A DNA stretch of 64,000 nt, from the NCBI GenBank assembly GCA_965153355.1, contig OZ231126.1, forward strand, positions 38,316,001-38,380,000, given 5' to 3'. Positions 5,106 through 33,259 of the stretch are shown piece after piece. The stretch comes from Flaccisagitta enflata (lineage: Eukaryota). The position numbers were made by a program, and so were the translations under genes. Each line of letters starts with the position of its first letter. Position 1 is the stretch's first letter. The notes beneath the pieces are model-generated. The model worked only from the letters and a program-made list of their open reading frames with translations. It was not told where the DNA came from and did not search any database.

Positions 5106-5114
5106 CGACAACAC

Positions 5115-5815: not shown

Positions 5816-5920
5816 CTGGAGAACGAAAACAAAACAATTGATAACATTTACAGCACCAGTCGTCTACGCTATTGTTTTGAACAGTTTATTTCACGTTTTT
5901 TATTCAAAATAACCAACCGT

Positions 5921-8974: not shown

Positions 8975-9975
8975 TGTCACGAAGCATGGTCTTGCACCAA
9001 TTTTGTCTATTCTTACGGATTATTTGGTTTGTATTTAGGCCTTAGATTTTGATTTATTGATTGATATTTTGGTTATATTAAGATATTTTACTTAGATTTG
9101 ACCATTTTATTTAGACTGGCTTTTATCGTTTGCATTTATTACAGGTTTGAATTATTCTGGTTTCATTTATTGACATTGCTTAGATTTATTGATTGATTTA
9201 TTGCCTCGTTTATTCGTTTATTTCAGGCATTTATTGATTTGTCTGTCTGATTTGTCCTCATTTCGGTCCAAATTGTTCATGTTTGTCCGTATGATCTTTT
9301 CTTGCTTTGCATTTTGTTTCTGTCATGAATCTCCTGCGCCTTTTGTTATTTGGGCTATTTTAGACCAAATTCGTAGCGCCCTCATTTGACCATTATTTGC
9401 ATTTTTTACTGGCTGACGCAATTCGGCTTCGAAGATTCCATGATATTTTATCGCGTTCTAGAACTTTTTGTTGCTTATATACCGCCATTTTGCCGGCAAT
9501 ATTCTCACGGACTCTAGAGAGACGCTTCGAATTACTAAAAACTACGTTTCCGTATATTAAATAGACGATTTTTACCATTATTTGCATCGATACGAGCATT
9601 ATTGGGACGCTTTTCGACTTCCCTTAGCGCCAAACAAAGGTGAGAGCTTGGTTTGGGTCCGTATTTTTTATTATTTTTCCTGTACTTAGCCTTATTTTTC
9701 CTGTTTCCGGCTTATTTTCCCCGTATTTAGCCTCATATTTTGTCATTATTCTGTCATTATTTGGTCAGTATTTTGTCACTTTTAGTAGTATTCATTATCT
9801 CCTTTATTTTCACTGTCTTGCAGCTTTAACTAACTTCGACTACCGTTCAAATAAAAGAAGATTTCGTTACGATCGCTCTGTATTTGTTTGGGGATCGAGG
9901 TTTAGTCACGAGCGGCGCAGCCGCATACAGGAGAGCTAGAGGCATTGGGCATTTAGTTTAGTACACCAGAATACA
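8975..9975 (+). repeat. 5' LTR (1001 bp)
   Basis: TG...CA ends, AATAAA at 9850-9855. Matches 34644-35644 at a constant offset of 25669, and three ORF-track translations are identical between the copies. Confidence 0.95.
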
Positions 9976-9990
9976 GTTAAAGCTTTAAAT
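9976..9990 (+). promoter_or_regulatory. Non-canonical primer-binding site region
   Basis: gttaaagctttaaat directly follows the LTR-terminal CA, with no TGG. Conserved in the inverted copies ending at 29686 and 33238, and complementary to LTR 9822-9831. Confidence 0.5.
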
Positions 9991-10797
9991 AGCGCATGCC
10001 CTGGCTCTTTTGTGTGTGTCTATCGTTGATCAGAACCCACAAAGACAAAGAACCGTCCTCAATCTTCGCTCGATCGAATCAACGCCCAAAGTAATAAAGA
10101 AACCGACGCGACGATCAAGAATCAACTCGGAATCGATGCCCCACTTGGACACGTATCTCATGAGAGAAAAAAAAATCCAAACAGAAGAAGGAAACCTCGT
10201 AAACGCCGATCGAGTCTTCTCCGAGGTAGCGCGTGAACAGATCAACTTGCGTGAATAATTAGTAAATCAAACTGACAGTCCCCGCTCACCCGGTGACCAT
10301 CGGAAACACCGCATTTTGCACACGTGAATTTGCACATCCCTAGAAAGCTAGAAACATCATTTTCAAGGGTCTTCGTTCACGAAGAAACTTGATTGTCAGT
10401 CAGTGTCATTTTCAAGCAGTTACACGTCTTCTGCTGAGGTCCCTCGTTCGCGAGTGACCTCGGCTCGCTAGAAATCCTTGCTACTAGAATCTAGAATTTC
10501 GAAGAGCCCCTCACCGGGTGATTCGGTCCTCTGTTAGATTTTTAGAAACGCTTAATTTTCGAAGAACCCCTTTCCGGGTAATTCGGTCCCGTCAGTCAGA
10601 ACATCAGGCTAATAAGGATAACAGCTGATTAGGCCTCGGTAACCGAGGACTTTCAAGCTGAGATCTTACAGGTCATTAGGGACATTTTTTCAGAGCTCGT
10701 TTGCAGCTTTGATAACAAACAAATCTCGAGAGTTGGGCCTATTTTGGCACCTAAGTTCGAGTCTCTCTGTTCATCAGAGGGTTCTAAACAGTCCCGT

Positions 10798-10881
10798 ATG
10801 TCCCGCAGGCCCAAGGGCCGCGGGATGTACTTTCACGGGGACACTACGCCCGACGATCGCGGGATGTCAGTAGGAATCTAG
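10798..10881 (+). pseudogene. Truncated third variant of the ORF1 start (MSRRPKGRGMYF...) inside the leader
   Basis: Upstream DNA gggcctattttggcacctaagttcgagtctct resembles gggcctaaattggcacgtaaattcgagtctct before the ORF1a ATG. The peptide resembles MPRSPQGSGMY. Inverted copies at ~28503-28586 and ~32190-32270. Confidence 0.55.
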
Positions 10882-11641
10882 AGAGGAAAAGAATCAGTGA
10901 AAACAGAACCCTTAAAGCATGTAGTAGCTTGCGCGGCAAAACCTTAAATTCCAACGTAAAAAAAAGAAAAGAACTCGGAAAGGAAAGAAAAGAAAGAAGA
11001 AAGAAAGAAAAGAAAGAAAAAAAAGAAAGAAAAAAAAAGAAAGAAAAAAAAGAAAGAAAGAAAGAAAAGAAAGAAAAAGAAAGAAAGAAAAGAAAGAAAG
11101 AAAGAAAAGAAAAAAAAGAAAAAAAAAAAAAAGTAAAAAAAAAAAATAGAAAACACGAAGTCTCTCTGCCAACCCGAGGACGGAGAGCGGCCGTGCCCGC
11201 ACATCTGTAGCTCGGGCCAGTTCCGCAATCCTCTTCCTACTCAGAACTTAGAAAGACGAAGAAATGAAAGAAACTATGAATCAGAATTAAATTCGCAGAA
11301 CTTGGGAGGAAATAAAGAACTTGGAAAGAAAGAACTCGAAAGTTAGAAAGAACTCGAAAGTTAGAAAAAACTCGAAAGTTAGAATCCATTTGACCTGGGA
11401 AATAGAAGTATTTGTTATCAATGAAACTCAATTCAGTTGAGTTGATTCAGTTCTGCATCCTACATCAATTCAGTCAATTATGCCTCGGCATCCGAGGAAT
11501 TTTGGCTTGAGAGCAAGTAACTGTTAGAAAACTTTCTTAGAAGCTCGTCTATAGCTCTAAAACTTCAAAAAATGTCGAGGTGGGCCTAAATTGGCACGTA
11601 AATTCGAGTCTCTTTGCTAACCCAGAGAATAGCCCATCAAT

Positions 11642-14600
11642 ATGCCTCGCTCACCACAAGGTAGCGGGATGTATCATGAGGTTAGCCCCCAGCATAGCCG
11701 CTATTATGCTAGGATCCTTGTCGATGACGCCACCAAGACTTTGAGGGAATTCCTGATAGCTCACGGCTTGGCCAGAGACTATCCGGAGCCAAAGTTTAAG
11801 CAGAGGGCAAATGATCTATTCTCTCAGGTCCAAAAAATGAAATTCGAACTGATAGAATTACCCCCATCCTTTCCACCAGATGAACAACAAAGAATAGACT
11901 CACTGATAGGAAGGATTCAGAATGAATTAGAAGGACACCCAGCCTTTTACATTCCATCAAGCGGAAATACTGCAAGTAATCCTTCGCTTCCTGCCTTCCC
12001 AATTCAAAGGGCTCCACCCGTGGTTCCTCGCGTTCACCATTCCTCCCAATCCATCTCACAGAGTCCCCCTTCCCTCATCGCATTCAGCGATAATTCCCGA
12101 GTCTCCCATCAGTTACAAAACGAGCCTATGGCCAGTTCTGACCAAGTTGAATCAGTCATTTCCGATCGGTTCTTTGACCCGCTCAGTATTCCCTCACAAG
12201 TTGCCAGTTCCTTCGATGGCCTCTCCACCATTGCAACGGTATCACGTCAAACAAACCAAGCATCACGCACGTTACGGCCATCCAAAGAACCAACGATCCC
12301 ACTTGTGCTAGAAAACAACGCCCCTCACAGAAACCATGACCAGATTATTAGAGGTCAGAAATTAAATGAACGCAATCATCAAAAACACTTGCGCTATGAT
12401 GACGCGGTCAAACAGACTAAAATCAATTCTTTGAACGCAATTGCAGCCAACCTCAGTGCTGCGGTCGATTTAATGAGGGAACTGATAATCAATAATCCTC
12501 TCGACGAAACTCCTTCGAATCAGCAAAGACAGGGCCACACAGAAAGATTGGGTGAAAGCGATCCACACACTCCTGCATCAGATTCAGATTCAGATTCTGA
12601 TACAGATTCAGATTCTGATACAGATTCAGATTCTGATACAGATTCAGATTCAGATTCTTCGGCCGAATGTGGCCCTCCTCAGCCTCAGACTTTCTGTTCC
12701 CAGATCCAGTTTCGTACTCAACCGACTCAAACTGATCACTTACTGATACAGAATCAGAACTATGTTCCTCAGTCTCAATTTCATGACAATTCCGAACAGA
12801 CTATGTCTAATCAGAACCAATCCGAGCGCACTCAAGTTAGATCTGGACCACTTCTGGACTTGGCTTGTTATCAGCCTGCTCAGTCTCATTCTCGGCCTGC
12901 TCAGTCTCATTCGCGGCCTGCTCAGTCTCATTCGCGGCCTGCTCAGTCTCATTCGCGGCCTGCTCAGTCTCATTCGCGGCCTGCTCAGACTCTCATTCAC
13001 GGCCTGCTCAGTCTCATTCGGCCTGCTCAGTCTCATTCTCGGCCGGCTCAGACTGATTGCCAATTTGCTCTAATAGACTTGGGTACCTCTTCCCCCACTT
13101 GCAGCACCGCCAGATACAGACCACAGTCCCAATCACAACAGACTCAGCATTCAGCGCAAATAATCGAAAACCAAAATACATGGCGAGCGGCAGGGCCCAG
13201 CTCGTTTGAAGCTTGGGCGAGTTCCGCAAGCCAACCACAACCACACACCACCCAACCACAACCACAACCACAGAGTAGGGAAGTGGAAAACCTTGCAAGG
13301 CTTTTCTGTGGCAATCACGATTCTACTTCTGCTCAAAACTCAGTCCGGCCTAAAACTCATGCATCTTTGCCAACGCCACCCAAGTATTATGACCCCATAC
13401 TCAGATTACCCACTCCCTCTTGGGATTCACCACAACATCAAAATGTCAATCAACATTCAAGACAGATTGACTCAGACTCACCAACCCTTTTGCGCGCGTC
13501 TGGAGTGAGTTACGCACCATCATACGCCCAACCCGCTTTGTTTCATCCTACTCCAGTTAAGGTGCAGATAAGCCATGAATTATTTGCCTCATCAAAATTT
13601 GGGATGGTTGTGTTGGCTCAGTCAAACAATCAAAGTCAGTCTGAAGACTCTTTTACCGTCATTGGCCCTGAAAACGACATCGAAGGGGCAATAGAAATTT
13701 CCTCAGAAGAAGCCGTTGAGGCCAACTCAGAAGAAGCCGTTGAGGCCAACTCAGAAGAAGCCGTTGAGGCCAACTCAGAAGAAGCCGTTGAGGCCAACTC
13801 AGAAGAAGCCGTTGAGGCCAACTCAGAAGAAGCCGTTGAGGCCAATTCAGAAGAAGCTGTTGAGGCCAACTCAGAAGAAGCCGTTGAGGCCAACTCAGAA
13901 GAAGCCGTTGAGGCCAACTCAGAAGAAGCCGTTGAGGCCAACTCAGAAGAAGCCGTTGAGGCCAACTCAGAAGAAGCCGTTGAGGCCAACTCAGAAGAAG
14001 CCGTTGAGGCCAACTCTGACGCCGAGGCTCAAGATGACGCCGAGGCTCAAGATGACGCCGAGGCTCAAGATGACGCCGAGGCTCAAGATGACGCCGAGGC
14101 TCAAGATGACGCCGAGGCTCAAGATGACGCCGAGGCTCAAGATGACGCCGAGGCTCAAGATGACGCCGAGGCTCAAGATGACGCCGAGGCTCAAGATGAC
14201 GCCGAGGCTCAAGATGACGCCGAGGCTCAAGATGACGCCGAGGCTCAAGATGACGCCGAGGCTCGAGATGACGCCGAGGCTCGAGATGACGCCGAGGCTC
14301 AAGATGACGCCGAGGCTCAAGATGACGCCGAGGCTCAAGATGACGCCGAGGCTCAAGATGACGCCGAGGCTCAAGATGACGCCGAGGCTCAAGATGACGC
14401 CGAGGCTCAAGATGACGCCGAGGCTCAAGATGACGCCATAGCTCAAGATGACGCCATAGCTCAAGATGACGCCATAGCTCAAGATGACGCCATAGCTCAA
14501 GATGACGCCACAGCTCAAGATGACGCCATAGCTCAAGATGACGCCAGCTCAAGATGACGCCATAGCTCAAGATGACGCCTAGCTCAAGATGACGCCATAG

Positions 14601-14887
14601 CTCAAGATGACGCCTAAGCTCAAGATGACGCCATAGCTCAAGGTGACGCCATAGCTCAAGGTGACGCCATAGCTCAAGATGACGCCATAGCTCAAGATGA
14701 CGCCATAGCTCAAGATGACGCCATAGCTCAAGATGACGCCATAGCTCAAGATGACGCCATAGCTCAAGATGACGCCATAGCTCAAGATGACGCCATAGCT
14801 CAAGATGACGCCATAGCTCAAGATGACGCCATAGCTCAAGATGACGCCGAGGCTCAGGACAACTATGGCATCTCAGAACTCATTTAG
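11642..14887 (+). CDS. ORF1a: putative Gag-N-terminal-like helical domain, low-complexity linker and acidic repeat tail (EEAVEANS)n(DAEAQD)n
   Basis: 971-aa ORF 11642-14557 in gag position after the LTR and leader. Small indels in the repeat at ~14546-14580 break the frame; otherwise it would end ...QDNYGISELI* at 14885-14887. No capsid or zinc-knuckle motif recognised, so Gag identity is positional inference. Confidence 0.6.
13703..14860 (+). repeat. 24-bp then 18-bp tandem arrays (tcagaagaagccgttgaggccaac; gacgccgaggctcaagat / gacgccatagctcaagat)
   Basis: Directly visible head-to-tail repeats without spacers. Confidence 0.97.
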
Positions 14888-16305
14888 TCCATTTCTACGC
14901 AAACTTCAGTCTTAGTATCAGACTCACTTGTGCATTCACATTTAGAAATGAGGACAATTTGTAAATATTGTGCATTATTTTCATTTCTCTCTTAAATTAA
15001 TGCTCTCATTTTTTGAATGATATTTGCCTGACTCTACAAGCGCGTCACATTCCCTAACAAACATGATATTTGTGTGACTCTAAAGTGGGTCACCCTTCCT
15101 TACAACAAACTAAGTCTCTCAGATGACCATGTATTGTTGTGCAACCTTATGCAATCCCAATACTAATTTCATTTTAAAGGCTTACAATGCCCGCAAGAAA
15201 AATGAAATGAATGAAGGGACTTCATCATTTAGAAATTAATCCATGGATCATTTTAGAAACGAGTCATGCTTCACCATACAACTTGGTTAACCGGAAAACC
15301 AAGCATATGGTTTTGCACGCTAATGTGAACAATTCAATTCTACTTGCATAATTCTAGATGTGGGTTATGCTTGTAGAGCTTCAGAATTTTGAACCTTGGG
15401 ATCCCAAAAAAAAACTTAAGACCTCAGAACCTCAGAACCTCAGAACCTCTCCCACTCAGCTAAGTATGGCATGAAATCCTGAAGCCGCAGAGGCGAGTTG
15501 AAAACAACGTTGGATACTGTGCCTTAATGCTTAGAAGGGAAACCTCAGAACCTCAGAACCTCTCCCACATACCTTAGTATGGTATGCAATCCTGAAGCCG
15601 CAGAGGCGAGTCGGACGCGACGCTGGACACTGAGCCTTTGAGCTCAGAAGGGAACAACAGAAACAAAACAGAACCAAAACTTTGTAAGTGAAAATAAGTG
15701 GCAGTGCACTAGCTCGTCTGTAATTCGGGCGAGTTCCGCGAGTTTTCACTCTCGAGGTATCTCCATTGTAAATATCATCATTCATTTGTCTTCACCTTTA
15801 TTGATTATGAGAATTTAACCATTTGCCATCCCCGACATAGACGTTGGAATGATAAGATGAATTAATCCGGTAATCTTAGATTCAAATGACATGTCATAAC
15901 ATGTCTAAAAGAGACAAGAAAAAACAAACGAATCAGAACATACGAAAGAACAAGAAAATACAAACGAATCAGAAAGAAAATGAAACCAAAAGGAGAATCA
16001 AAATCAGAAGAAAAGTGGTATTACTTTCAGAACAAATTGAAAAGAACAACAGATAGAAGAAGAACAGAATGATACAGAACAGATAGAAAAAGAACAGAAT
16101 GAAAAAGAACAATCAAACGCGCCAGAACAGATAGAACCCGAAGAGTCCGTTCGCCGAATGAATGGAAATAACAATTGATTCGTTCAAATTGTTCGTTCGT
16201 CAAAGAGAAGCGGATTGAATAAACGATTCCGCTGAGAAGTTAATCGTTCTTGTCGTCGATGGATCATTGTCGTATTTTTCCCGCCATCGTCTTTGTTGTT
16301 GTTGC

Positions 16306-16341
<36 letters not shown>

Positions 16342-19052
16342 GTTGTTAATGTTGTTTTTGTTGTTAGTGTTGTTTTGTCGCTGATGTTGTTTTGTTGTTG
16401 ATGTTGTTTTGTTGTTAATGTTGTTTTTGTTGTTAGTGTTGTTTTGTCGTTGATGTTGTTTTGTTGTTGATGTTGTTTTGGTTGTTGATGTTGTTTTGTT
16501 GATGTTGTTTCGTTGTTGATGTTGTTTTCGTTGTTAGTGTTGTTTCGTTGTTGTTTTGTAGCCGTCTGGTTCGCGGAGCTGCTGCAATCTACATGGCGAG
16601 CGAGACTGCCGCTCACCATCTGGTGTGATTCTCGGTGATGAAGTCGCTGACAAAAGTTATTAAATGTTCAAATTTGTTGATGCTTGAAGACTTGAAGCCA
16701 ATATTGCATAAGAGATGAGTTTCAGGCTCGCGACTTCCGTCCACACATGTCATCAGCTTTACTAGCGCCTCCTCGCCACTGTCACCAATTTCTGTCTCGC
16801 GAAAACATCAATCAGTCCAATGATTCAGAGGTGGTTGAGCAATCAACTGTCATTTATGTAGCTGTCCCAAAATACCGCTTCGTGTCGGTCAGTCCGGGTT
16901 TGGCGATAGAGTTTGAGTTCTTCTAAATCTAATGTTTCATATTCTTTTTCTCCTATTTTGATTTCTAGCAAGTCTGGTTCTTTATTGTTTTCCTCTGTTT
17001 TGTCTCATTCTGTTTCTTTCTGTTCTGACTCACTAAATTGTTTTTTTTTCGATCTGCTCTGGTTCTATCTGTTCTGGCGCGCTTGATTGTTCTTTTTCAT
17101 TCTGTTCTTTTTCTATCTGTTCTGTATCATTCTGTTCTTCTTCTATCTGTTGTTCTTTTTCTATTTGTTCTGAAAGTAATACCACTTTTCTTCTGATTTT
17201 GATTCTCCTTTTGGTTCATTTTCCCCCTGATTCGTTTGTATTATCTTGTTCTTTCGTATGTTCTGATTCGTTTGTTTTTTCTTGTCTCTTTTAGACATGT
17301 TGTGACATGTCATTTGAATCTAAGATTACCGGATTAATTCATCTTATCATTCCAACGTCTATGTCGGGGATGGTAAATGATTAAATTCTCATAATCAATA
17401 AAGGTGAAGATAAATGAATGATGATATTTACAATGGAGATACTTTGAGAGTGAAACTTGCGGAACTTGCCCAAATTACAGACGAGCTAGTGCACTGCCTC
17501 TTATTTTCACTTACAAAGTTTTGGTTCTGTTTTGTTTCTGTTGTTCCCTTCTGAGCTCAAAGGCTCAGTGTCCAGCGTCGCGTCCGACTCGCCTCTGCGG
17601 CTTCAGGATTTCATACCATCTTAAGGTATGTGGGAGAGGTTCTGAGGTTTCCCTTCTAAGCATTAAGGCACAGTATCAAACGTTGTTTTCAACTCGCCTC
17701 TGCGGCTTCAGGATTTCATGCCATACTTAGCTGAGTGGGAGAGGTTCTGAGGTTCTAAGGTTCTGAGGTTCTGAGGTTCTGAGGTCTTAAGTTTTTTGGG
17801 ATCCCAAGGTTCAAAATTCTGAAGCTCTACAAGCATAACCCACATCTAGAATTATGCAAGTAGAATTGAATTGTTCACATTAGTATGCAAAACCATATGC
17901 TTGGTTTTCCGGTTAACCAAGTTGTATGGTGAAGCATGACTCGTTTCTAAAATGATCCATGGATTAATTTCTAAATGTTGAAGTCCCTTCATTCATTTCC
18001 TTTTTCTTGTGGGCATTGTGGGCCTTTAAATGAAATTAGTAATGGGATTGCATAAGGTTGCACAACAATACATGGTCATCTGAGAGACTTAAGTTTGTTG
18101 TAAGGAAGCGTGACCCACTTGTAGAGTCACGCGAATATCATGTTGTTTGTTAGGGAATGTGACCCGCTTGTAGAGTCACGCACATATCATGTTTCAGAGA
18201 GCATTAATTTAAGAGAGAAATGAAAATAATGCACAATATTTACAAATTGTCCTCATTTCTAAATGTGGATGCACAAGTGAGTCTGACACTAAGACTGAAG
18301 TTCGCGTAGAAATGGACTAAATGAGTTCTGAGATGCCATTGTTGTCCTGAGCCTCGGCTTCATCTTGAGCTATGGCGTCATCTTGAGCTATGGCGTCATC
18401 TTGAGCTGTGGCGTCACCTTGAGCTATGGCGTCACCTTGAGCTATGGCGTCATCTTGAGCTATGGCGTCATCTTGAGCCTCGGCGTCATCTTGAGCCTCG
18501 GCGTCATCTTGAGCCTCGGCGTCATCTTGAGCCTCGGCGTCATCTTGAGCCTCGGCGTCTTCTTGAGCCTCGGCGTCTTCTTGAGCCTCGGCGTCTTCTT
18601 GAGCCTCGGCGTCTTCTTGAGCCTCGGCGTCTTCTTGAGCCTCGGCGTCTTCTTGAGCCTCGGCGTCATCTTGAGCCTCGGCGTCATCTTGAGCTCGGCG
18701 TCATCTTGAGCCTCACTTGAGCCTCGGCGCATCTTGAGCCTCGGCGTCATCTTGAGCCTCGGCGTCATCTTGAGCCTCGGCCATCTTGAGCCTGGCGTCA
18801 TCTTGAGCTCGGCGTCATCTTGAGCCTCGGCGTCATTTTGAGCCTGGCGTCATCTTGAGCCTCGGCGTCATCTTGAGCCTCGGCGTCATCTTGAGCTCGG
18901 CGTCATCTTGAGCCTCGCGTCATCTTGAGCTCGGCGTCATCTTGAGCCTCGCGTCATCTTGAGCCTCGGCGTCATCTTGAGCCTCGGCGTCATCTTGAGC
19001 CTCGGCGTCATCTTGAGCCTCGGCGTCATCTTGAGCCTCGGCTTCTGAGTTG
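14005..19052. repeat. Large inverted repeat (arms ~14005-16138 and ~17061-19052, ~920-bp loop)
   Basis: 14852 gctcaggacaactatggcatctcagaactc pairs with 18323-18352. 16110-16138 aatcaaacgcgccagaacagatagaacc pairs with 17061-17088. Confidence 0.9.
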
Positions 19053-20413: not shown

Positions 20414-21982
20414 TTGGCCGCCACTGGTAAGATAGCCGAGTGGAGGTGGAAAGTGAGACGCATTGCTATCATTAGGCGAGTCTTGTTAAAATTGAGGGAA
20501 GTGGTTAAGAATAAAAAAGAAAACCTGGTGAGTTCCAGATTGCGATCAGGAAATAATAAATCCAAAGAAAAATTACGCATTCATCTAAGTGAGGAAGAAA
20601 AGGAGGCTGCTGAGTATCTTTTGATCAGATCAATCCAAAGTGAGGAATTTGAGAAAGAAACAACCAAATTAATCAAATTAGGCATTTTCTCACCTAACAC
20701 TATCCACGATATGAACATCAAAGATACCAAATTAGCAAAATTATGCCCCTTCCTAGACTCACATAATGTCATGCGAGCAGGTGGTAGAATAGCCAAAGCT
20801 GAGTATCTGCCATACAACCACAGATACCCCATCATACTTCCAAACAGCACTTCAGAACCCATTAGGGCACTTATAAGGCACTACCACCAGGCCCATTACA
20901 AAAGATTCCACTGCACAGTGCAACAAACTTACTACCTTCTGAGAACCAAATATTTCATACTTGGTGGCAAAAATTCAGTCAGAAGTGTTTTGAGTAAATG
21001 CATAGTCTGTCAGAAACTTTCAAAACGCAAGGCAGCACAAAAGGAAGGTGATCTACCACTCGAAAGGATGGCAATGGTACCCCCATTTTACCATTGTGGT
21101 TTAGATTGCCTAGGACCCTTCCATTTGAGACATACAGGCAGAAACACCCGCAAGCAATTCGTGCTCATTGCATGCTGCATGTCCACTCGTGCCATTACTT
21201 TAGTGCCACTTCGCGATATGACCACCTCTAGCATCATAAATTCACTGATCAAAATCCACTCACAGTTTCCCGCCCTTAAAAATTTGTACTCTGACAATGG
21301 GTCAAATTTTAAGGGCGCAGACAGAGAAATTAGGGAAGCAGTGGCAGCTTGGAAAAAAGAGGATTTAGATGAGAGGTTAAGCGATCTGGAACTCACTTGG
21401 ACCTTTGGGCCGGCCTATTGTGGTAGCGCCGGAGGGAGTTGGGAGCGTTTAATAGGATTGTCAAAGAAACTATTAAGAAGTGTAATTGGTGACAAAAACA
21501 TCGATATTGAGGATTTTGAAACCTTGTTGGCAGGAGCCAGTTCTATCATGAATCGTCGTCCACTGATGCCGGCATCGGCAGATGTAGACGATGATCAGAT
21601 TTTAACTCCAAGTCATTTCCTCTATCCTTACCTATTCACTTCTGACGCTACTCATATTCTCCCTCCTCAGGCCGAACACAATCACGTCCTGAAACACGGG
21701 TGGAAGTGCTCCCAATTTCTCCTCGATCAATTTTGGCGAAGGTTCAGCACGGAATACATTCAAGAACTGATAAAAAGAAACAAACAAAACACGACGCCTA
21801 TCAAAGTAAACACGCTGGTCCTCATCGAAGACGTGGAAGCTTCGAGAGAATCATGGAAAGTCGGTCGAATAGTAGACATTCTCAACGGTGACAAAACCCA
21901 CGGAAGAAGGTTTAAAATCCGATTAGCCTCTGGGAAAACTATCGATCGTCATATATCATCGTGTGTAATTCTTGAGACCTAA
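20414..21982 (+). CDS. Isolated BEL/Pao integrase (RNase H-IN linker, HHCC, DDE core, DUF5641-like C-terminus)
   Basis: Pao-type motifs: LCPFLD...RAGGRI...YPIILP, H..YH...CIVC, GLDCLGPF (D), SDNGSNFKGA (D), GGSWERLIG (E), NRRPL, LTPSHFL, FWRRFSTEYI, WKVGRI. It is 5'-truncated, opening on TTG with no RT or RNase H upstream. Confidence 0.92.
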   Translation: MAATGKIAEWRWKVRRIAIIRRVLLKLREVVKNKKENLVSSRLRSGNNKSKEKLRIHLSEEEKEAAEYLLIRSIQSEEFEKETTKLIKLGIFSPNTIHDMNIKDTKLAKLCPFLDSHNVMRAGGRIAKAEYLPYNHRYPIILPNSTSEPIRALIRHYHQAHYKRFHCTVQQTYYLLRTKYFILGGKNSVRSVLSKCIVCQKLSKRKAAQKEGDLPLERMAMVPPFYHCGLDCLGPFHLRHTGRNTRKQFVLIACCMSTRAITLVPLRDMTTSSIINSLIKIHSQFPALKNLYSDNGSNFKGADREIREAVAAWKKEDLDERLSDLELTWTFGPAYCGSAGGSWERLIGLSKKLLRSVIGDKNIDIEDFETLLAGASSIMNRRPLMPASADVDDDQILTPSHFLYPYLFTSDATHILPPQAEHNHVLKHGWKCSQFLLDQFWRRFSTEYIQELIKRNKQNTTPIKVNTLVLIEDVEASRESWKVGRIVDILNGDKTHGRRFKIRLASGKTIDRHISSCVILET

Positions 21983-22602
21983 AGAACACAGTGGGATCGT
22001 CGACCCACGGGAGGACGCGTGTAATAGAATCATTTCATTTAGACTATGTTTTACAGTCAGTCGTGAGTTTCACATTTCAGTAATTAGTATTGAGTTCTGA
22101 GGTTTCCCTTCTAAGCATTAAGGCACAGTATCCAACGTTGTTTTCAACTCGCCTCTGCGGCTTCAGGATTTCATGCCATACTTAGCTGAGTGGGAGAGGT
22201 TCTGAGGTTCTAAGGTTCTGAGGTTCTGAGGTCTTAAGTTTTTTGGGATCCCAAGGTTCAAAATTCTGAAGCTCTACAAGCATAACCCACATCTAGAATT
22301 ATGCAAGTAGAATTGAATTGTTCACATTAGTATGCAAAACCATATGCTTGGTTTTCCGGTTAACCAAGTTGTATGGTGAAGCAAAACTCGTTTCTAAAAT
22401 GATCCATGGATTAATTTTTAAATAATGAAGTCACTTCATTCACTTCATTTTTCTTGCGGGCATTGTGGGCCTTTAAAATGAAATTAGCGATTTTATCTGA
22501 ATTTCTATCAAATGATGCGCAATATTTACAAATTGTCCCTATTTCTAAATGTCCATGCACAAGTGAGTCTGATACTAAGACTGAAGTTTGCGTAGAAATG
22601 GA

Positions 22603-25600
22603 CTAAATGAGTTCTGAGATGCCATTGTTGTCCTGAGCTATGGCGTCATCTTGAGCTATGGCGTCATCTTGAGCTATGGCGTCATCTTGAGCTATGGCGT
22701 CATCTTGAGCTATGGCGTCATCTTGAGCTATGGCGTCATCTTGAGCTATGGCGTCATCTTGAGCTATGGCGTCATCTTGAGCTATGGCGTCATCTTGAGC
22801 TATGGCGTCATCTTGAGCTATGGCGTCATCTTGAGCTATGGCGTCATCTTGAGCTATGGCGTCATCTTGAGCTATGGCGTCATCTTGAGCTATGGCGTCA
22901 TCTTGAGCTATGGCGTCATCTTGAGCTATGGCGTCATCTTGAGCTATGGCGTCATCTTGAGCTATGGCGTCATCTTGAGCTATGGCGTCATCTTGAGCTA
23001 TGGCGTCATCTTGAGCTATGGCGTCATCTTGAGCTATGGCGTCATCTTGAGCTATGGCGTCATCTTGAGCTATGGCGTCATCTTGAGCCTCGGCGTCATC
23101 TTGAGCCTCGGCGTCATCTTGAGCCTCGGCGTCATCTTGAGCCTCGGCGTCATCTTGAGCCTCGGCGTCATCTTGAGCCTCGGCGTCATCTTGAGCCTCG
23201 GCGTCATCTTGAGCCTCGGCGTCATCTTGAGCCTCGGCGTCATCTTGAGCCTCGGCGTCATCTTGAGCCTCGGCGTCATCTTGAGCCTCGGCGTCATCTT
23301 GAGCCTCGGCGTCATCTTGAGCCTCGGCGTCATCTTGAGCCTCGGCGTCATCTTGAGCCTCGGCGTCATCTTGAGCCTCGGCGTCATCTTGAGCCTCGGC
23401 GTCATCTTGAGCCTCGGCGTCATCTTGAGCCTCGGCGTCATCTTGAGCCTCGGCGTCATCTTGAGCCTCGGCGTCATCTTGAGCCTCGGCGTCATCTTGA
23501 GCCTCGGCGTCATCTTGAGCCTCGGCGTCATCTTGAGCCTCGGCGTCATCTTGAGCCTCGGCGTCATCTTGAGCCTCGGCGTCATCTTGAGCCTCGGCGT
23601 CATCTTGAGCCTCGGCGTCATCTTGAGCCTCGGCGTCATCTTGAGCCTCGGCGTCATCTTGAGCCTCGGCGTCATCTTGAGCCTCGGCGTCATCTTGAGC
23701 CTCGGCGTCATCTTGAGCCTCGGCGTCATCTTGAGCCTCGGCGTCATCTTGAGCCTCGGCGTCATCTTGAGCCTCGGCGTCATCTTGAGCCTCGGCGTCA
23801 TCTTGAGCCTCGGCGTCATCTTGAGCCTCGGCGTCATCTTGAGCCTCGGCGTCATCTTGAGCCTCGGCGTCATCTTGAGCCTCGGCGTCATCTTGAGCCT
23901 CGGCGCCATCTTGAGCCTCGGCGTCATCTTGAGCCTCGGCGTCATCTTGAGCCTCGGCGTCATCTTGAGCCTCGGCGTCATCTTGAGCCTCGGCGTCATC
24001 TTGAGCCTCGGCGTCATCTTGAGCCTCGGCGTCATCTTGAGCCTCGGCGTCATCTTGAGCCTCGGCGTCATCTTGAGCCTCGGCGTCATCTTGAGCCTCG
24101 GCGTCATCTTGAGCCTCGGCGTCATCTTGAGCCTCGGCGTCATCTTGAGCCTCGGCGTCATCTTGAGCCTCGGCGTTATCTTGAGCCTCGGCGTTATCTT
24201 GAGCCTCGGCGTCATCTTGAGCCTCGGCGTCATCTTGAGCCTCGGCGTCATCTTGAGCCTCGGCGTCATCTTGAGCCTCGGCGTTATCTTGAGCCTGGGC
24301 GTCATCTTGAGCCTGGGCGTCATCTTGAGCCTGGGCGTCATCTTGAGCCTGGGCGTCATCTTGAGCCTGGGCGTCATCTTGAGCCTCGGCGTCATCTTGA
24401 GCCTCGGCGTCATCTTGAGCCTCGGCGTCGGAATGAGCCTCGGCGTCGGAATGAGCCTCGATGTCGGAATGAGCCTCGATGTCGGAATGAGCCTCGATGT
24501 CGGAATGAGCCTCGACATTGGAATGAGCCTCGACGTCGGAATGAGCCTCGACGTCGGAATGAGCCTCGACGTCGGAATGAGCCTCGACGTCGGAATGAGC
24601 CTCGACGTCGGAATGAGCCTCGACGTCGGAATGAGCCTCGACGTCGGAATGAGCCTCGACGTCGGAATGAGCCTCGACGTCGGAATGAGCCTCGACGTCG
24701 GAATGAGCCTCGACGTCGGAATGAGCCTCGACGTCGGAATGAGCCTCGACGTCGGAATGAGCCTCGACGTCGGAATGAGCCTCGACGTCGGAATGAGCCT
24801 CGACGTCGGAATGAGCCTCGACGTCGGAATGAGCCTCGACGTCGGAATGAGCCTCGACGTCGGAATGGGCCTCGACGTCGGAATGGGCCTCGACGTCGGA
24901 ATGGGCCTCGGCTTCGGAGTGGGCCTCGGCTTCGGAGTGGGCCTCGGCTTCGGAGTGGGCCTCGGCTTCTGAGTGGGCCTCGGCTTCTGAGTGGGCCTCG
25001 GCTTCTGAGTGGGCCTCGGCTTCTGAGTGGGCCTCGGCTTCTGAGTGGGCCTCGGCTTCTGAGTGGGCCTCGGCTTCTGAGTGGGCCTCGGCTTCTGAGT
25101 GGGCCTCGGCTTCTGAGTGGGCCTCGGCTTCTGAGGGCCTCGGCTTCTGAGTGGGCCTCGGCTTCTGAGTGGGCCTCGGCTCTGAGTGGGCCTCGGCTCT
25201 GAGTGGGCCTCGGCTTCTGAGTGGGCCTCGGCTTCTGAGTGGGCCTCGGCTTCTGAGTGGGCCTCGGCTTCTGAGTGGGCCTCGGCTTCTGAGTGGGCCT
25301 CGGCTTCTGAGTGGGCCTCGGCTTCTGAGTGGGCCTCGGCTTCTGAGTGGGCCTCGGCTTCTGAGTGGGCCTCGGCTTCTGGGTGGGCCTCGGCTTCTGG
25401 GTGGGCCTCGGCTTCTGAGTGGGCCTCGGCTTCTGAGTGGGCCTCGGCTTCTGAGTTGGCCTCGGCTTCTGAGTTGGCCTCGGCTTCTGAGTTGGCCTCG
25501 GCTTCTGAGTTGGCCTCGGCTTCTGAGTTGGCCTCGGCTTCTGAGTTGGCCTCGGCTTCTGAGTTGGCCTCGGCATCTGAGTTGGCCTCGGCATCTGAGT

Positions 25601-27761
25601 TGGCCTCGGCATCTGAGTTGGCCTCGGCATCTGAGTTGGCCTCGGCATCTGAGTTGGCCTCGGCATCTGAGTTGGCCTCGGCATCTGAGTTGGCCTCGGC
25701 ATCTGAGTTGGCCTCGGCATCTTTTGTGGAAATATCTATTGCCCCTTTGATGTGGTTTTCATGGCCAAGGACGGTAGAAGAGTCTTCAGACTGACTTTGA
25801 TTGTTTGACTGAGCCCATACAGCCGTCCCAAATTTTGATGACGCAAATAATTCATGGCTTATCTGCACCTTAACCGGAGTAGGATGAAACAAAGCGGGCT
25901 GGGCGTATGATGGTGCGTAACTCACTCCAGATGCGCGCAAAAGGGTTGGTGAGTCCGAGTCAATCTGTCTGGAATGTTGATTGACATTTTGACGTTGTGG
26001 TGAATCCCAAGAGGGAGTGGGTAATCTGAGTATGGGGTCATAATACGTGGGAGGCTCTGGCCAAGATGCATGAGTTTTAGGCCGGACTGAGTTTTGAGCA
26101 GAAGTAGAATCGCGATTGCCACAGAAAAGCCTTGCAAGGTTTTCCACTTCCCTACTCTGTGGTTGTGGTTGGGTGGTGTGTGGTTGTGGTTGGCTTGCGG
26201 AACTCGCCCAAGCTTCAAGCGAGCTGGGCCCTGCCGCTCGCCATGAATTTTGGTTTTCGATTATTTGCGCTGAATGCTGAGTCTGTTGTGATTGGGACTG
26301 TGGTCTGTATCCGTCTGTGTCTAGCTGTGGTCTGTATCTGGCGGTGCTGCAAGTGGGGGAAGAGGTACCCAAGTCTATTAGAGCAAATTGGCAATCAGTC
26401 TGAGCCGGCCGAGAATGAGACTGAGCTGGCCGAGAATGAGACTGAGTAGGCCGAGAATGAGACTGAGCAGACTGAGAATGAGGCTGAGCAGGCTGATAAC
26501 AAGCCAAGTCCAGAAGTGGTCCAGATCGATCTTGGGTGCGCTCAGATTGGTTCTGATTAGACATAGTCTGTTCAGAATTGTCATGAAATTGAGACTGAGG
26601 AACATAGTTCTGATTCTGTATCAGTAAGTGATCAGTTTGAGTCTGTTGAGTACGAAACTGGATCTGGGAACAGAAAGTCTGAGGCTGAGGAGGGCTACAT
26701 TCGGCCGAAGAACCTGAATCTGAATCTGTATCAGAATCTGAATCTGTATCAGAATCTGAATCTGTATCAGAATCTGAATCTGTATCAGAATCTGAATCTG
26801 TATCAGAATCTGAATCTGAATCTGAAGCAGGAGTGTGTGGATGACTTTCACCCAATCTTTCTGTGTGGCCCTGTCTTTGCTGATTCAAAGGAGTTTCGTC
26901 GAGAGGATTATTGATTATCAGTTCCCTCATTAAATCGACCGCAGCACTGAGGTTGGCTGCAATTGCGTTCAAAGAATTGATTTTAGTCTGTTTGACCGCG
27001 TCATCATAGCGCAAGTGTTTTTGATGATTGCGTTCATTTAATTTCTGACCTCTAATAATCTGGTCATGGTTTCTGTGAGGGGCGTTGTTTTCTAGCACAA
27101 GTGGGATCGTTGGTTCTTTGGACGGCCGTAACGTGCGTGATGCTTGGTTTGTTTGACGTGATACCGTTGCAATGGTGGAGAGGCCATCGAAGGAACTGGC
27201 AACTTGTGAGGGAATACCGAGCGGGTCAAAGAACCAATTGGAAATGACTGATTCAACTTGGTCAGAACTGGCCATAGGCTCGTTTTGTAACTGATGGGAG
27301 ACTCGGGAATTATCGCTGAATGCGATGAGGGAAGGGGGACTCTGTGAGATGGATCGTGAGGAATGGTGAACGCGAGAAATCACGGGTGGAGCCCTTTCAA
27401 TTGGGAAGGCGGGAAGCGAGGGATTATTTGCAGTATTTCCGCTTGATGGAATGTAAAGGGCTGGGTGTCCTTCTAATTCATTCTGAATCCTTCCTATCAG
27501 TGAGTCTATTCTTTGTTGTTCATCTGGTGGAAAGGATGGGGGTAATTCTATCAGTTCGAATTTCATTTTTTGGACCTGAGAAAATAGATCATTTGCCCTC
27601 TGCTTAAACTTTGGCTCCGGATAGTCTCTGGCCAAGCCGTGAGCTATCAGGAATTCCCTCAAAGTCTTGGTGGCGTCATCGACAAGGATCCTAGCATAAT
27701 CGCGGCTATGCTGGGGGCTAACCTCATGATACATCCCGCTACCTTGTGGTGAGCGAGGCAT
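22603..27761 (-). CDS. ORF1a': inverted second copy of ORF1a with a ~3.1-kb acidic 18-bp repeat tail
   Basis: N-terminal ~680 aa nearly identical to 11642+. Three small deletions at ~25135-25200 (1+1+2 nt) shift the frame. Restored, it ends DAIAQDNNGISELI* at 22603. Confidence 0.6.
22633..25720 (-). repeat. ~3.1-kb 18-bp tandem array arranged in blocks of variant units
   Basis: Successive blocks encode DAEANS, EAEANS, EAEAHS, DVEAHS, DAEAQD and DAIAQD in the restored frame. Confidence 0.97.
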
Positions 27762-29686
27762 ATTGATGGGCTATTCTCTGGGTTAGCAAAGAGACTCGAA
27801 CTTGCTTGCCAATTTAGGCCCACCTCGTCATTTTTTGAAGTTTTAGAGCTATAGACGAGCTCTTAAGAAAGTTTTCTAACAGTTACTTGCTCCCAAGCCA
27901 AAATTCCTCGGATGCCGAGGCATAATTGACTGAATTGATGTAGGATGCAGAACTGAATCAACTCAACTGAATTGAGTTTCATTGATAACAAATACTTCTA
28001 TTTCCCAGGTCAAATGGATTCTAACTTTCGAGTTTTTTCTAAATTTCGAGTTCTTTCTAACTTTCGAGTTCTTTCTTTCCAAGTTCTTTATTTCCTTCCA
28101 AGTTCTGCGAATTTAATTCTGATTCATAGTTTCTTTCATTTCTTCGTCGTTCTGAGTAGGAACAGGATTGCGGAACTGGCCCGAGCTACAGACGTGCGGG
28201 CACGGCCGCTCTCCGTCCTCGGGTTGGCAAAGAGACTTCGTGTTTTCTATTTTTTTTCACTTTTTCTTTTTTTTTCTTTTCTAATTTTTTTTCCGAATAT
28301 TCTTTCTTTTCTTTTTCGTTCTTTTCTTTTTCGTTCTTTTCTTTTTCTTCTTCTTTATCTTTCGCGTCTTTTTTTCCTACTGTTCTCTTTCTTTCTTTCT
28401 ACCTTTCCGAGTTCTTTTCTTTTTTTACGTTGGAATTTAAGGTTTTGCCGCGCAAGCTACTACATGCTTTAAGGGTTCTGTTTTCACTGATTCTTTTCCT
28501 CTCTAGATTCCAACTGACATCCCGCGATCGTCGGGCGTAGTGTCCCCGTGAAAGTACATCCCGCGGCCCTTGGGCCTGCGGGACATACGGGACTGTTTAG
28601 AACCCTCTGATGAACAGAGAGACTCGAACTTAGGTGCCAAAATAGGCCCAACTCTCGAGATTTGTTTGTTATCAAAGCTGCAAACGAGCTCTGAAAAAAT
28701 GTCCCTAATAATTACTAACGATCTCAAGTTGATGATCCTCGGTGACCGAGGCGTAATCAACAAGAATGAACTGAGTGCAGAACCGAGTCAGTTCGATTAA
28801 ATCGAGTTCCTCGGTAAACTGCGCCTTTAAGGTTCCTGATGATTTCTGACAGATGCTCGATGTTCTCAGTCCGAAGGTCCTCGATTATTCCATTGTTCCT
28901 TTCATTAAATTCGCTGACTGACTAATGGTCCAAATTACCCGGTGAGGGGTTCTTCGTGAAGTTGACGATTCTAAAATCTAGTAATCCTGACTAACTGACA
29001 AGGCCGAATTACCCGGTGAAGGGTTCTTCGAAAAAATAGACGTTTCTAAAAATCTAGGTGATCTGACTGACTGACAGGGGGACGAATTACCCGGTGTGGG
29101 GTTCTTCGAGTTTCTAGTTTCTAGTAGAATGGATTTCTAGCTAGCCGAGGTCACTCGCGAACGAGGGACCTCAGCAGAAGACTGCTAAATGCTTGTAATT
29201 GACTAACTGACAATTCAAGTTCCTTCGGTGACCGAAGATCCTTGAATATTAATGGTACTAGCTTGCTAGATTGTGCAAATCGACGTGTGCAAATGCGGGT
29301 GCTTTCCGATGGTCACCGGGTGAGCGGGGACTGTCGGTCTGATTTTCTAATTACTCGCGTAAGTTTTTCTGTTCACGCGTTGCCTCGGAGAAGAAAGACT
29401 CGGTCGAGTATTTCTCCGTCTTCTGTTCAGATTTCTTTTTTTGTGAGATACGTGTCTTTGTTCTTGATCGCGTGAGTTTCTTGGTTACGTTGGGCATCGA
29501 TTCTGAGCTGATTCTCGATCGGTTTCTTCTTGATCAATTTGGGCGTTAATTCTGAGTGGGTTCTTGATCGTCGTCGAATACTCACCAATCGAGCGAACAT
29601 TGAGGACGGTTCTTTGTCTTCTTGGGTTCTGATCAACGATAGACACACACAAAAGAGCCAGGGCATGCGCTATTAAAAGCTTTAAC
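27762..29686 (-). repeat. Inverted 5' leader of the internal unit
   Basis: Reverse complement of 9976-11641 with an extra ~200-bp segment. Confidence 0.88.
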
Positions 29687-30741
29687 TGTATTGTCGTGTA
29701 CTAAACTAATGCCCAATGCCTCTAGCTCTCCTGTATGCGGCTGCGCCGCTCGTGACTGAACCTCAATCCCACGAATAATACAGAGCGATCTCAATGCGAT
29801 CTTCTTTTATTTGAACGTAGGCGAAGCAGTTAAAGCTGCAAGACAGTGAAAAATGAAAGGAGCTAATGAAAATGCAGCTAAATATACAGATATCTAGCCA
29901 GAAATACTCAATAATACTGAAAGTGACCAAATACTGAACGAATAATGACGGAATAATGACGGAATAATGACAAAAATACGGGAAAAATAAGCCGTAAACG
30001 GGAAAAATATGGCTAAGTACGGGAAAAATAATACGAAATATGAACCCAAATCAAGCTCTCACCTTTGTTTGGCGCTCAGGGAAGTCAAATAGGCGTCCTA
30101 ATAAGGCTCGTATCAGTGCAAAATATGGTGAAAAGCGTCTATTTAATAGGCGAAAGAGTAGTTTTTAGCAATATGAGCGTCTTTTCTAGATTCTGTAAGG
30201 AAATATCGTCGGCAAAATGGCGGTAACTAAGCAACGAAAGGTTCTAGAAAATCATAGAATTCTATGGAAATCTTCAATTTCCCTTCGAGGTTCGATTGCG
30301 TCAGCCAGTAAAAATGCCAATATCGGTCAATTGAGGGCGCTACGAAATCGGTCTAAAATAGCCCAAATGACAAAAGGCGCAATGAATTCATAACAGGAAC
30401 GAAATGCAAGGCAAGAAAATATCATACGGACAAACATGAGCAATTTGGACAGAAATAAGGACAAATCAGACGGACAAATCAATAGATGCATGAAATAAAC
30501 GAATAAATGAGTCAATAAATCAATCAATAAATCTAAACGATGTCAATAAATGCGATCAGAATAAATCAAACCTGTAATAAATGCAAACGATAAAAACCAA
30601 TCTAAATAAAACGGTCAAATCTAAGTAAAATATCTAAATATAATCAAAAATATCAATCAATAAATCCAAATCTAAGGCCTAAATACCAACCAGATAATCC
30701 GTAAGAAATGATAGAATTGGTGCAAGACCATGCTTCACGAC
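29687..30741 (-). repeat. Internal inverted, diverged LTR of the same family
   Basis: Reverse complement of the terminal LTR with many substitutions and indels. It ends in ...ATACA followed by the same gttaaagct site. The first T of the TG terminus is missing at the junction with the La cassette. Confidence 0.9.
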
Positions 30742-30758
30742 TCGTTCAAATTGTTCGT

Positions 30759-31862: not shown

Positions 31863-31964
31863 GATTATTGGATAATGACCGGATGGACGGCGTTGTTCAA
31901 AATAAGAAAACTGATAATGGTCTCCTTTATTTTAAACAAGTGAAGTAGTAGAAATTAGCTCAGT

Positions 31965-33240: not shown

Positions 33241-33259
33241 ACGCTTTCTTGTTCTTTTT

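Follow-up and report, generated by a model that had tools for sequence, protein, structure and literature searches.

A 26.7-kb LTR-bounded composite insertion in Flaccisagitta enflata with inverted copies of one retrotransposon family and predicted long hairpins

Mu killer of maize is a rearranged derivative of a DNA transposon in which one copy is duplicated in inverted orientation. Read-through from a flanking gene is proposed to produce a transcript with a ~4 kb hairpin, which gives rise to siRNAs and to silencing of the family in trans (PMC3440606); the first-pass annotation of the present locus invoked this precedent, and the account in that source agrees with it. The hairpin-RNA endo-siRNA loci of Drosophila carry long inverted repeats in one RNA that is diced to 21-nt siRNAs; as described in the sources drawn on here, they are conserved host loci and mostly target genes or drive loci (PMC5392987, PMC10317233). 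A third kind of relative, the one-cycle complex LTR insertion, is diagnosed by a flanking target-site duplication (TSD) and near-identical outer LTRs (PMC1950507). The Angela, Squiq and Opie complexes of grasses, as presented there, are products of template switching and consist of two complete cores that point the same way and share a middle LTR (Sabot and Schulman 2007, PMC1950507).

The locus analyzed here lies in a 64,000-nucleotide stretch of the Flaccisagitta enflata genome (contig OZ231126.1, positions 38,316,001 to 38,380,000), referred to as the window, which contains no N. It shares with Mu killer the rearranged structure of a transposon derivative in which element sequence is duplicated in inverted orientation. 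In contrast to Mu killer, its arms are LTR-retroelement subfamily copies, 73-98% identical, that offer several competing stems, and transcription would probably start in its own LTR, no flanking gene having been found; silencing was shown for Mu killer and is a prediction here. It shares long inverted repeats with the Drosophila loci, the folding here being predicted in silico only, but it is made of transposon sequence lying within a transposon, and it looks very young. With the grass complexes described in PMC1950507 it has in common a 5-bp TSD, outermost LTRs that are nearly identical, one additional LTR inside, an interior derived from more than one parent, and the interpretation as one event of reverse transcription and integration. 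It differs from those described there in having four truncated copies, three of them inverted, fragments of a pol gene and of a host mRNA, and seven junctions; the TSD, the similar outer LTRs and the internal LTR are found, and the two complete same-orientation cores are not.

Anatomy of the insertion

The insertion occupies 26.7 kb (8975-35645) and is bounded by two identical LTRs, with partial retrotransposon copies of the same family in opposite orientations inside. Self-BLAST aligned the 5' LTR (LTR-A1, 8975-9976, + strand) with the 3' LTR (LTR-A2, 34644-35645, + strand) at 1002/1002 positions (100%), a direct repeat that the first-pass annotation had missed. Such identity is also obtainable from gene conversion or assembly polishing. 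The termini are of the TG...CA type (TGTCAC...AATACA), and TATATA (9476-9481) is followed by AATAAA (9850-9855) in the expected order, both motifs being consensus readings only. A polypurine tract, AAAAACGGGGGGAG, at 34630-34643 abuts the 3' LTR. The pentamer GATGA precedes the insertion at 8970-8974 and, with the LTR taken as TGT...ACA, occurs again at 35645-35649; five matching flank bases are expected by chance in ~1 of 1024 cases, so the duplication is suggestive only. Direct terminal repeats, TG...CA ends, a short target duplication and a polypurine tract are the structural marks of an LTR retrotransposon, and all are present. An empty paralogous target site was not found in the 64-kb window. 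A primer-binding site was not recognized after the 5' LTR, where GTTAAAGCTTTAAATAGCG... lacks the initial TGG; a tRNA scan of the window returned 0 genes, leaving none for comparison, and Rfam gave 0 matches over the whole window.

The interior consists of four partial copies of one pol-less LTR family, recognized by an orphan gag-like ORF1 and 18-nt arrays; three are antisense to the first, copy A, and none of the four (A, E2, E3 and E4) carries pol. Copy A, on the + strand, starts with a leader (9977-11641; 75-87% identical to inverted leaders at 28760-29685 and 31970-33240) and an ORF1 of 971 aa (11642-14557) with an orphan N-terminal domain and a low-complexity middle; the ORF extends into tandem arrays (13702-14856; a 24-nt unit x13, then an 18-nt unit x47). 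Its 3' region (14857-16135), 96% identical at ungapped columns to 18344-17058, completes the head of copy A, and the homology of head to tail ends at 16135. The filler ACCCGA (16136-16141) is followed by copy E3 on the - strand (16142-20393), made up of a tail (16142-17172), 3' region (17173-18347), array (18348-19042), diverged ORF1 (18920-19789, 289 aa) and a leader piece to 20393. A pol fragment of an autonomous element (20394-22090, +) separates E3 from copy E2 (22091-30741, -), which comprises a truncated 3' region (22091-22641), arrays (22642-25722), ORF1 (23070-27761), leader (27762-29685) and the inverted LTR-B (29686-30741); LTR-B is 86% identical to LTR-A and only ~1-2 nt of its outer end is missing. 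Beyond it lie an element-derived linker of 37-40 nt (30742-30778, -; homologous to 16177-16216, 92.5% over 40 nt), an intronless fragment of a La gene (30759-31969, -), and copy E4 (31970-33240, -), a leader only, which is a direct copy of 28267-29688 (86-97%) and includes just 2-3 nt of LTR sequence before it breaks off at the LTR/leader boundary. After a T-rich filler (33241-33261), the tail of copy A (33262-34643, +) begins with ~110 nt that repeat 16029-16135 and ends in the polypurine tract; no second copy of 34208-34643 was found in the window. The segments 16142-17172 and 33260-34207 were considered as a third kind of LTR, a candidate rejected on the grounds that E3 runs contiguously through and the ends are not TG...CA.

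Pfam assigned no family to ORF1 of copies A, E2 or E3. Among 1.84 billion proteins, ORF1 of copy A had 16 matches, all to residues 1-161; one near homologue was identified (P0121, 47%). Pfam found nothing above cut-off in eight ORF1 relatives, a permissive rescan was likewise empty, and the ESM Atlas had no usable match to the N-terminal domain. As to a Gag capsid or zinc-knuckle region, one of the 16 proteins, P0137, has CX2CX4HX4C motifs at its end by eye, with no Pfam match. The dN/dS of copy A versus E2, 0.45, points to mild purifying selection on the long open ORF1. Its frames are open in A (971 aa) and E2 (1563 aa), as are those of pol (556 codons) and La, and all pieces of the composite look young. 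The substitution spectra of the arms gave no clear editing signature: in the ORF1 region A and E2 show 56 A/G versus 19 C/T differences on a strand that is 53.6% purine, and the LTR differences run the opposite way (28 A/G versus 55 C/T), both counts being made without an outgroup. LARD-type non-autonomous LTR elements, presumably moved by an autonomous partner, likewise have LTRs, a polypurine tract, a target duplication and no pol of their own, but the present family keeps a long open ORF1 and kilobase arrays of the 18-nt unit.

The open frame of the pol fragment (20312-21982) encodes an integrase zinc-binding domain (Integrase_H2C2, 1.4e-7) and DUF5641 (3e-16), which we take to mark BEL/Pao integrases; judged by these domains, the fragment is a BEL/Pao-type integrase piece. 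The window contains it only once, and a full BEL/Pao gag-pol (protease, RT, RNase H, integrase) is absent, this detached integrase fragment being the sole pol. The La fragment includes ~100 nt upstream and codons 1 to ~362; its ORF (31862-30759, 367 aa), in which the linker provides the final codons and the stop, matches Pfam La and RRM_3. It is colinear with P0001, a 423-aa protein from a transcript-sized contig, and identical to it at 358/365 residues (98%); named La relatives reach only ~41% identity.

Inverted homologies and predicted pairing

The first-pass annotation had described three inverted homologies; self-BLAST recovered all three at the same positions, far above chance, and the arms are, as it proposed, corresponding and homologous parts of the element (LTR, leader, ORF1, array, 3' region) that face opposite ways. 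Outer pair 1 is composed of 8981-9801 x 30736-29901 (85%), 9791-10074 x 29870-29588 (91%), 10148-10529 x 29456-29080 (83%), 10626-12974 x 28759-26393 (94%, including 1410 nt at 98%), 12958-14050 x 26493-25456 (85%) and 15163-15555 x 22487-22091 (95%); the 18-nt arrays, 14017-14856 x 22642-25722, match in many registers. Inner pair 2 joins 14147-16141 to 19042-17058 at 92% over 2017 columns, and the arrays prolong it to 14009 and 19054. Pair 3, 16142-17171 x 34206-33276, consists of three blocks of 84-90%; in a MAFFT alignment 353 columns contain gaps and the ungapped ones are 88.9% identical. Four further inverted pairs had been missed: 9977-11112 x 33237-31969 (75-87%), 29686-30736 x 35645-34650 (85-89%), 11035-11370 x 20393-20054 (85%) and 11611-11956 x 19821-19475 (73%).

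Perfect inverted matches of at least 21 nt, with the partner within the interval, cover 12,531 of the 26,671 positions of 8975-35645 (47%). By the same measure, the size-matched interval 35646-62316 has 888/26,671 (3%), and 146/8,974 positions are covered in 1-8974. Uninterrupted complementarity reaches at most 235 nt in pair 1, 111 nt in pair 2 and 84 nt in pair 3. The arms belong to diverged subfamilies (73-98% identity), so that a duplex would carry the sequence of several subfamilies, in line with the earlier claim of coverage. The proposed nesting of the hairpins survives only in part: pairs 1 and 2 compete for 14005-15550, and pair 3 does not nest. Of its arms, the left one falls inside the loop that pair 1 would close and the right one beyond it, which makes the two pairings cross as a pseudoknot.

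A single RNA with both arms folds in silico into kilobase stems, as had been proposed. The minimum free energy of 14005-19052 was -3825.7 kcal/mol, with 1899 of 2218 pairs joining the two arms; when the right arm was flipped as an orientation control, it was -1432.4 kcal/mol, with 3 of 1560 pairs joining the arms. A duplex of 11246-12655 with 26748-28157 was predicted to pair 1389 of its 1410 bases, at -2699.5 kcal/mol. In the modeled transcript a long stem is thermodynamically dominant, a statement that applies to the inner stem only.

Formation of the composite

Seven non-homologous junctions separate the interior pieces. Two of these are no more than 3 nt away from a natural cDNA end: the E4 break is 2-3 nt from the LTR/leader boundary, and E2 starts 1-2 nt from the outer end of its LTR. 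Filler sequence occupies 16136-16141 and 33241-33261, and the joins among La, linker and LTR-B show microhomologies of 8 nt (AATCCGCT) and 2-3 nt. A ~110-nt segment flanks both edges of the 17-kb block as a direct repeat (16029-16135 and 33288-33389, 88.9% over 108 nt). Copy E3 is contiguous where copy A is interrupted and has the segment once (17058-17172); it matches the head copy at 96.5% and the tail copy at 89.4%. With the edge copies at 88.9% and the LTRs at 100%, the interior is, judged by divergence, older than the LTR pair or foreign to it.

Reverse-transcription intermediates are the most likely source of the patchwork, which would have been assembled through template jumps or joining of cDNA ends and then integrated as one unit. 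Assembly before integration would explain why an interior that is already rearranged is enclosed by identical outer LTRs and a target duplication. We give about an even chance to the reading that 8975-35645 is a single LTR-bounded composite of this kind, its hairpin a by-product. The reverse-transcription route to inverted segments is something that we infer; the complexes presented in PMC1950507 are in the same orientation only.

Two other histories would account for the structure differently. The locus might be an ordinary nest, in which copy A was inserted first and later nested insertions, deletions, an inversion or replication-based template-switch repair brought in pieces of other copies, a pol fragment and a La retrocopy, the hairpin potential being accidental; if so, it is ordinary. 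Transposon nests are common, E2 starts almost at its LTR end as in a normal nested integration, and both end joining and replication-based repair typically leave fillers and microhomologies too. Such a history would need about seven events of breakage and joining, however, while the 2 x 1002 nt of LTR accumulated 0 substitutions; the repeat flanking the block is 88.9% and not 100% identical, and the inner copies all lack both a second LTR and their own target duplication. We regard this history as unlikely. An assembly artefact, with chimeric or mis-joined repeats and LTR identity that stems from consensus polishing, is less probable by a wide step. A repeat-rich region with kilobase 18-nt arrays is hard to assemble, and polishing can yield 100% identity over 1 kb; yet the window is free of N, the 5-bp flanks match, the polypurine tract is correctly placed, and what is seen at the junctions is filler and microhomology, not a clean repeat-mediated switch. 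Furthermore, the classic palindromic read artefact gives near-identical arms, whereas the inverted arms here are 73-98% identical and the arrays measure 0.8, 0.7 and 3.1 kb in the different copies; a missed-adapter palindrome was rejected on these differences, 2-27% between arms and in array length.

Transcription and possible silencing

A transcript from the 5' LTR to the 3' LTR, as in the normal genomic RNA of LTR elements, would necessarily hold both orientations. With both in one unit, it could form long double-stranded RNA. The first fold would bring 14.1-16.1 kb onto 17.1-19.0 kb in a ~2-kb stem, and the next ~9-14 kb onto ~25.5-30.7 kb. An RNAi-competent animal would be expected to dice this RNA into small RNAs that match several subfamilies. 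By analogy with Mu killer and the hairpin-RNA loci, the locus is a plausible siRNA source; any action of the Mu killer type would be a by-product and not an evolved device. Read-through from a host pre-mRNA or intron, suggested earlier as a second route, is unsupported, as the sequence flanking the element yielded neither a gene nor an intron. Twelve flanking ORFs matched no Pfam family at the curated cut-off, two weak Pfam matches (E ~1e-3, at 61426-62649 and 63309-63998) being far below it, and the longest flanking ORF (329 aa, 42164-43150, - strand) had no homologue among longer proteins, itself weak evidence.

The + strand has AATAAA at 16218 and 17397 and nine more at 30494-30664, with none between 20561 and 30493. 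The hexamers at 16218 and 17397 could stop transcripts before the inner hairpin is complete.

Whether the composite acts through a hairpin is weighed against two readings. The locus may be silent or terminate early, with no hairpin RNA and no effect on the family, a possibility that we hold at appreciably below even. The two hexamers within the inner hairpin speak for it, and young repeats are commonly heterochromatic; set against this, a hexamer by itself is no predictor of a 3' end, the intact 5' LTR has promoter-like and poly(A)-like motifs, and ORF1 of copy A is open. The alternative that the locus feeds a piRNA-type pathway, as a small cluster-like trap whose long single-stranded transcript supplies antisense sequence rather than a Dicer hairpin, seems rather improbable. 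piRNA clusters do consist of mixed-orientation transposon fragments, and three copies here are antisense to the only copy behind a complete promoter-bearing 5' LTR. Nevertheless, the unit measures only 26.7 kb and holds one family, cluster-type transcription is without any sign, and kilobase stems of 85-98% identity favor processing as double-stranded RNA.

A bolder version of the composite reading, on which we place only a small probability, is that the hairpin-forming unit was built in one aberrant cycle of reverse transcription and is itself transposable, able to be copied again. Its ingredients would have been RNAs or cDNAs of several subfamilies, the RNA of an autonomous element and a host La mRNA, and integrase would then have inserted the product with normal LTR ends. 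If this were true, a family-wide silencer with an antisense La segment would spread as a mobile element.

The anatomy is a clear example of a complex retroelement that was seemingly formed from reverse-transcription intermediates, with a captured host La fragment, and inserted whole, and it bears on the origin of hairpin loci and of gene-carrying retroelements. Were the locus transcribed, a retrotransposon family in an animal lineage with little sampling would have given rise to its own natural silencer, an animal LTR-element counterpart of Mu killer.

Composition and identity of the LTR-bounded unit

The most informative repeat of the locus is a direct LTR repeat, not the inverted ones. It was absent from the first-pass annotation; in self-comparison, 8975-9976 matches 34644-35645 without a mismatch over all 1002 positions. 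Read as TGT...ACA, the LTR pair is flanked by the pentamer GATGA (8970-8974 and 35645-35649), and a polypurine tract, AAAAACGGGGGGAG, adjoins the right one. Thus all inverted homologies lie inside one 26.7-kb LTR-bounded unit, and the empty site expected without the insertion would read ...GGGATCGATGACCTATAC.... In the LTR, TATATA (9476-9481) and AATAAA (9850-9855) occur in the order expected for U3-R-U5, both as consensus readings only. A short dispersed repeat (238-371 and 38166-38300, 85% identity) is found in the flanks, and related frames at 98-424, 8244-8567 and 38146-38445 encode a common motif, VTRGHNIV.DGW. The repeat may be a SINE-like element, and the composite has one copy of it immediately to its left.

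The anatomy of the composite is solid. The head of copy A (+ strand) supplies the LTR, leader, ORF1 (11642-14557), arrays (13702-14856; a 24-nt unit repeated 13 times and an 18-nt unit 47 times) and the 3' region to 16135. Six filler bases (16136-16141) separate it from the antisense copy E3 (16142-20393), which consists of tail, 3' region, array and a diverged 289-aa ORF1 (73% nucleotide identity). Next comes a pol fragment on the + strand (20394-22090), whose open 556-codon frame (20312-21982) contains an integrase zinc-binding domain and DUF5641; lying between two antisense copies, this frame accounts for all pol sequence of the composite, and no second copy of it was found within the window. 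In copy E2 (22091-30741, antisense) the 3' region is truncated and the arrays span 3.1 kb; an open 1563-codon ORF1, a leader and an inverted internal LTR, LTR-B, 86% identical to the outer LTRs, complete the copy. An element-derived linker of 37-40 nt joins LTR-B to a La fragment (30759-31969, - strand), followed by the antisense copy E4 (31970-33240; leader only), a filler of ~20 nt, and the tail of copy A (33262-34643, + strand), which ends in the polypurine tract before the 3' LTR. E3 is continuous across the point where copy A is interrupted; thus the uninterrupted family layout is LTR, leader, ORF1, arrays, 3' region, tail and LTR, ~9.4 kb without pol.

The 18-nt arrays at 13702-14856, 18348-19042 and 22642-25722 vary widely in copy number from one element copy to another (~47, ~40 and >170 units). 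Several of their frames are open, and at the ORF1 end they code for acidic repeats of the DAEAQD or SEAEAH type. CAA/TTG-type microsatellites at 4874-5113, 16293-16559, 38407-38612 and 39326-39499 match one another, one being inside the element tail.

The family is an LTR element that is non-autonomous and whose ORF1 is gag-like. No Pfam family was found for ORF1, and its single near homologue is P0121 (47% identity). A search of 1.84 billion proteins gave 16 matches at E <= 0.001, all to query residues 1-161. The conserved N-terminal domain of ~115 aa is encoded at 11642-12000 (+), 27761-27400 (-) and 19789-19450 (-). In P0137, a long ORF1 relative, zinc-knuckle-like CX2CX4HX4C motifs read by eye at the C terminus hint at descent from Gag; this found no support from Pfam models among the ORF1 relatives. 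The dN/dS between the ORF1s of A and E2 is 0.45 over 656 codons, so the frame was under mild purifying selection in the past. DUF5641 is presumably a mark of BEL/Pao integrases, but the family is not assignable to BEL/Pao because the sole pol sequence is a detached fragment.

Inverted homologies and predicted RNA folding

Self-comparison reproduced all inverted homologies listed by the first-pass annotation, with coordinates agreeing to a few tens of bases. The outer pair (pair 1) matches 8981-15555 to 30736-22091 in blocks: identity between the arms is 85% in the LTR, 91% from the LTR end into the leader start, 83% in the leader, 94% in the ORF1 region (98% over 1410 nt of it), 85% in distal ORF1 and 95% in the 3' region, and pairing of the 18-nt arrays is possible in many registers. 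Pair 2, the inner one, matches 14147-16141 to 19042-17058 (92%), and pair 3 matches 16142-17171 to 34206-33276 (84-90%, gap-rich). Uninterrupted perfect complementarity reaches 235, 111 and 84 nt in pairs 1, 2 and 3. Perfect inverted matches of at least 21 nt cover 12,531 of the 26,671 positions of 8975-35645, against 888 of 26,671 in a neighbouring interval and 146 of 8,974 in 1-8974, a density far above chance. In a comparison without an outgroup, so that changes are unpolarised, the ORF1 regions (10626-12974 vs 28759-26393) show a purine-transition bias on the sense strand (56 A/G vs 19 C/T); LTR differences, likewise compared without an outgroup, are biased the opposite way (28 A/G vs 55 C/T).

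Folding was predicted in silico for segments of the 26-kb RNA, namely the inner interval and the best outer segment. For the interval 14005-19052 the predicted energy is -3825.7 kcal/mol, and 1899 of the 2218 pairs join the two arms; when the right arm was flipped, keeping the same bases, the energy was -1432.4 kcal/mol and 3 of 1560 pairs joined the arms. The best outer segment gives a duplex in which 1389 of 1410 bases are paired, at -2699.5 kcal/mol. It had been proposed that the transcript forms nested multi-kilobase hairpins. Separate kilobase stems do fold in silico, but they are not simply nested: pairs 1 and 2 compete for 14005-15550, and pair 3 crosses pair 1, since its left arm lies in the inner-hairpin loop and its right arm falls outside the outer stem. 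The full 1-kb helix of pair 3 is therefore impossible alongside the outer stem in one molecule. During transcription, 14005-15550 should go to pair 2 rather than to pair 1, as E3 (96% identical) is the nearer partner. Further competing partners are the A leader with the E4 leader, and LTR-B with the 3' LTR.

Formation of the patchwork

Seven non-homologous junctions link the pieces (16135/16142, ~20393/20394, 22090/22091, 30741/30742, ~30778/30779, ~31969/31970 and 33240/33262), two of them with fillers. The La/linker join has an 8-nt microhomology, AATCCGCT, and the linker/LTR-B join has 2-3 nt in common. The E4 breakpoint is at the LTR/leader boundary, with 2-3 nt of the LTR included, and that of E2 lies within 1-2 nt of the outer LTR-B end; both breakpoints fall at natural ends of reverse-transcription products. 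All frames within the pieces are still open. Both edges of the 17-kb block carry a ~110-nt segment of copy A (16029-16135 and 33288-33389). E3 has this segment once, and it matches the head copy at 96.5% and the tail copy at 89.4% identity. The two edge copies are only 88.9% identical, so the head and tail of A come from different source copies, despite LTRs without one difference.

Formation in one reverse-transcription cycle is moderately supported by these features. According to PMC1950507, a heterogeneous interior enclosed by identical outer LTRs and a target duplication is diagnostic of a one-cycle complex LTR insertion. The template-switch complexes described there are structurally closest to the composite, but they are same-orientation dimers only, whereas the composite has inverted and truncated copies as well as a host fragment that it captured. 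For the inverted segments we infer a route in which the growing cDNA would jump to another cDNA. A stepwise origin, by nesting and repair once the element had integrated, is less likely, as it requires about seven events, yet the LTRs have zero substitutions. The composite is also unlikely to be an assembly artefact: its arms differ by 2-27% and its array lengths are unequal, which would not be the look of a palindromic read artefact, and the window, whose DNA is eukaryotic and animal-like, contains no N.

Possible transcription and the captured La fragment

The genomic RNA of LTR elements normally runs from the 5' LTR to the 3' LTR, and such an RNA would cross all junctions of the composite. 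As motif positions only, the inner hairpin includes two AATAAA hexamers on the + strand (16218 and 17397), and nine more lie at 30494-30664, antisense to the U3 of LTR-B; none occurs on that strand across 20561-30493 (10 kb). A host pre-mRNA, put forward as a second hairpin source, is unsupported, since the 12 flanking ORFs match no Pfam family at the curated cut-off; no homologue of one of them was found, which is weak evidence. Long open frames at 61426-62649 (+) and 63309-63998 (+, running off the window), one with a glutamine-rich end, have no Pfam family above cut-off and may be part of another mobile element. Self-complementary palindromes of 0.6-0.75 kb with arms 76-87% identical occur at 36609-37191, 41650-42271 and 53267-54014, and are possibly foldback or MITE-like elements.

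A hairpin or small-RNA function of the composite is plausible. The composite would work like Mu killer (PMC3440606) and like the fly inverted-repeat endo-siRNA loci (PMC5392987 and PMC10317233). The trait in common that the sequence shows is the inverted repeat; such loci are further defined by a spanning transcript, small RNAs and silencing.

The ORF of the La fragment (31862-30759, - strand) encodes La and RRM_3 domains (Pfam) and is identical at 358 of 365 residues (98%) to P0001, a 423-aa protein from a transcript-sized contig. The fragment, from the 5' part of a La gene, is colinear with P0001, has no intron, and is cut at about residue 362, at its contact with element sequence. The best named La relatives (molluscs, nematodes) are only ~41% identical; thus the host lineage is poorly sampled. 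Since the fragment is antisense to the composite's likely transcript, read-through of the composite would yield antisense La RNA.
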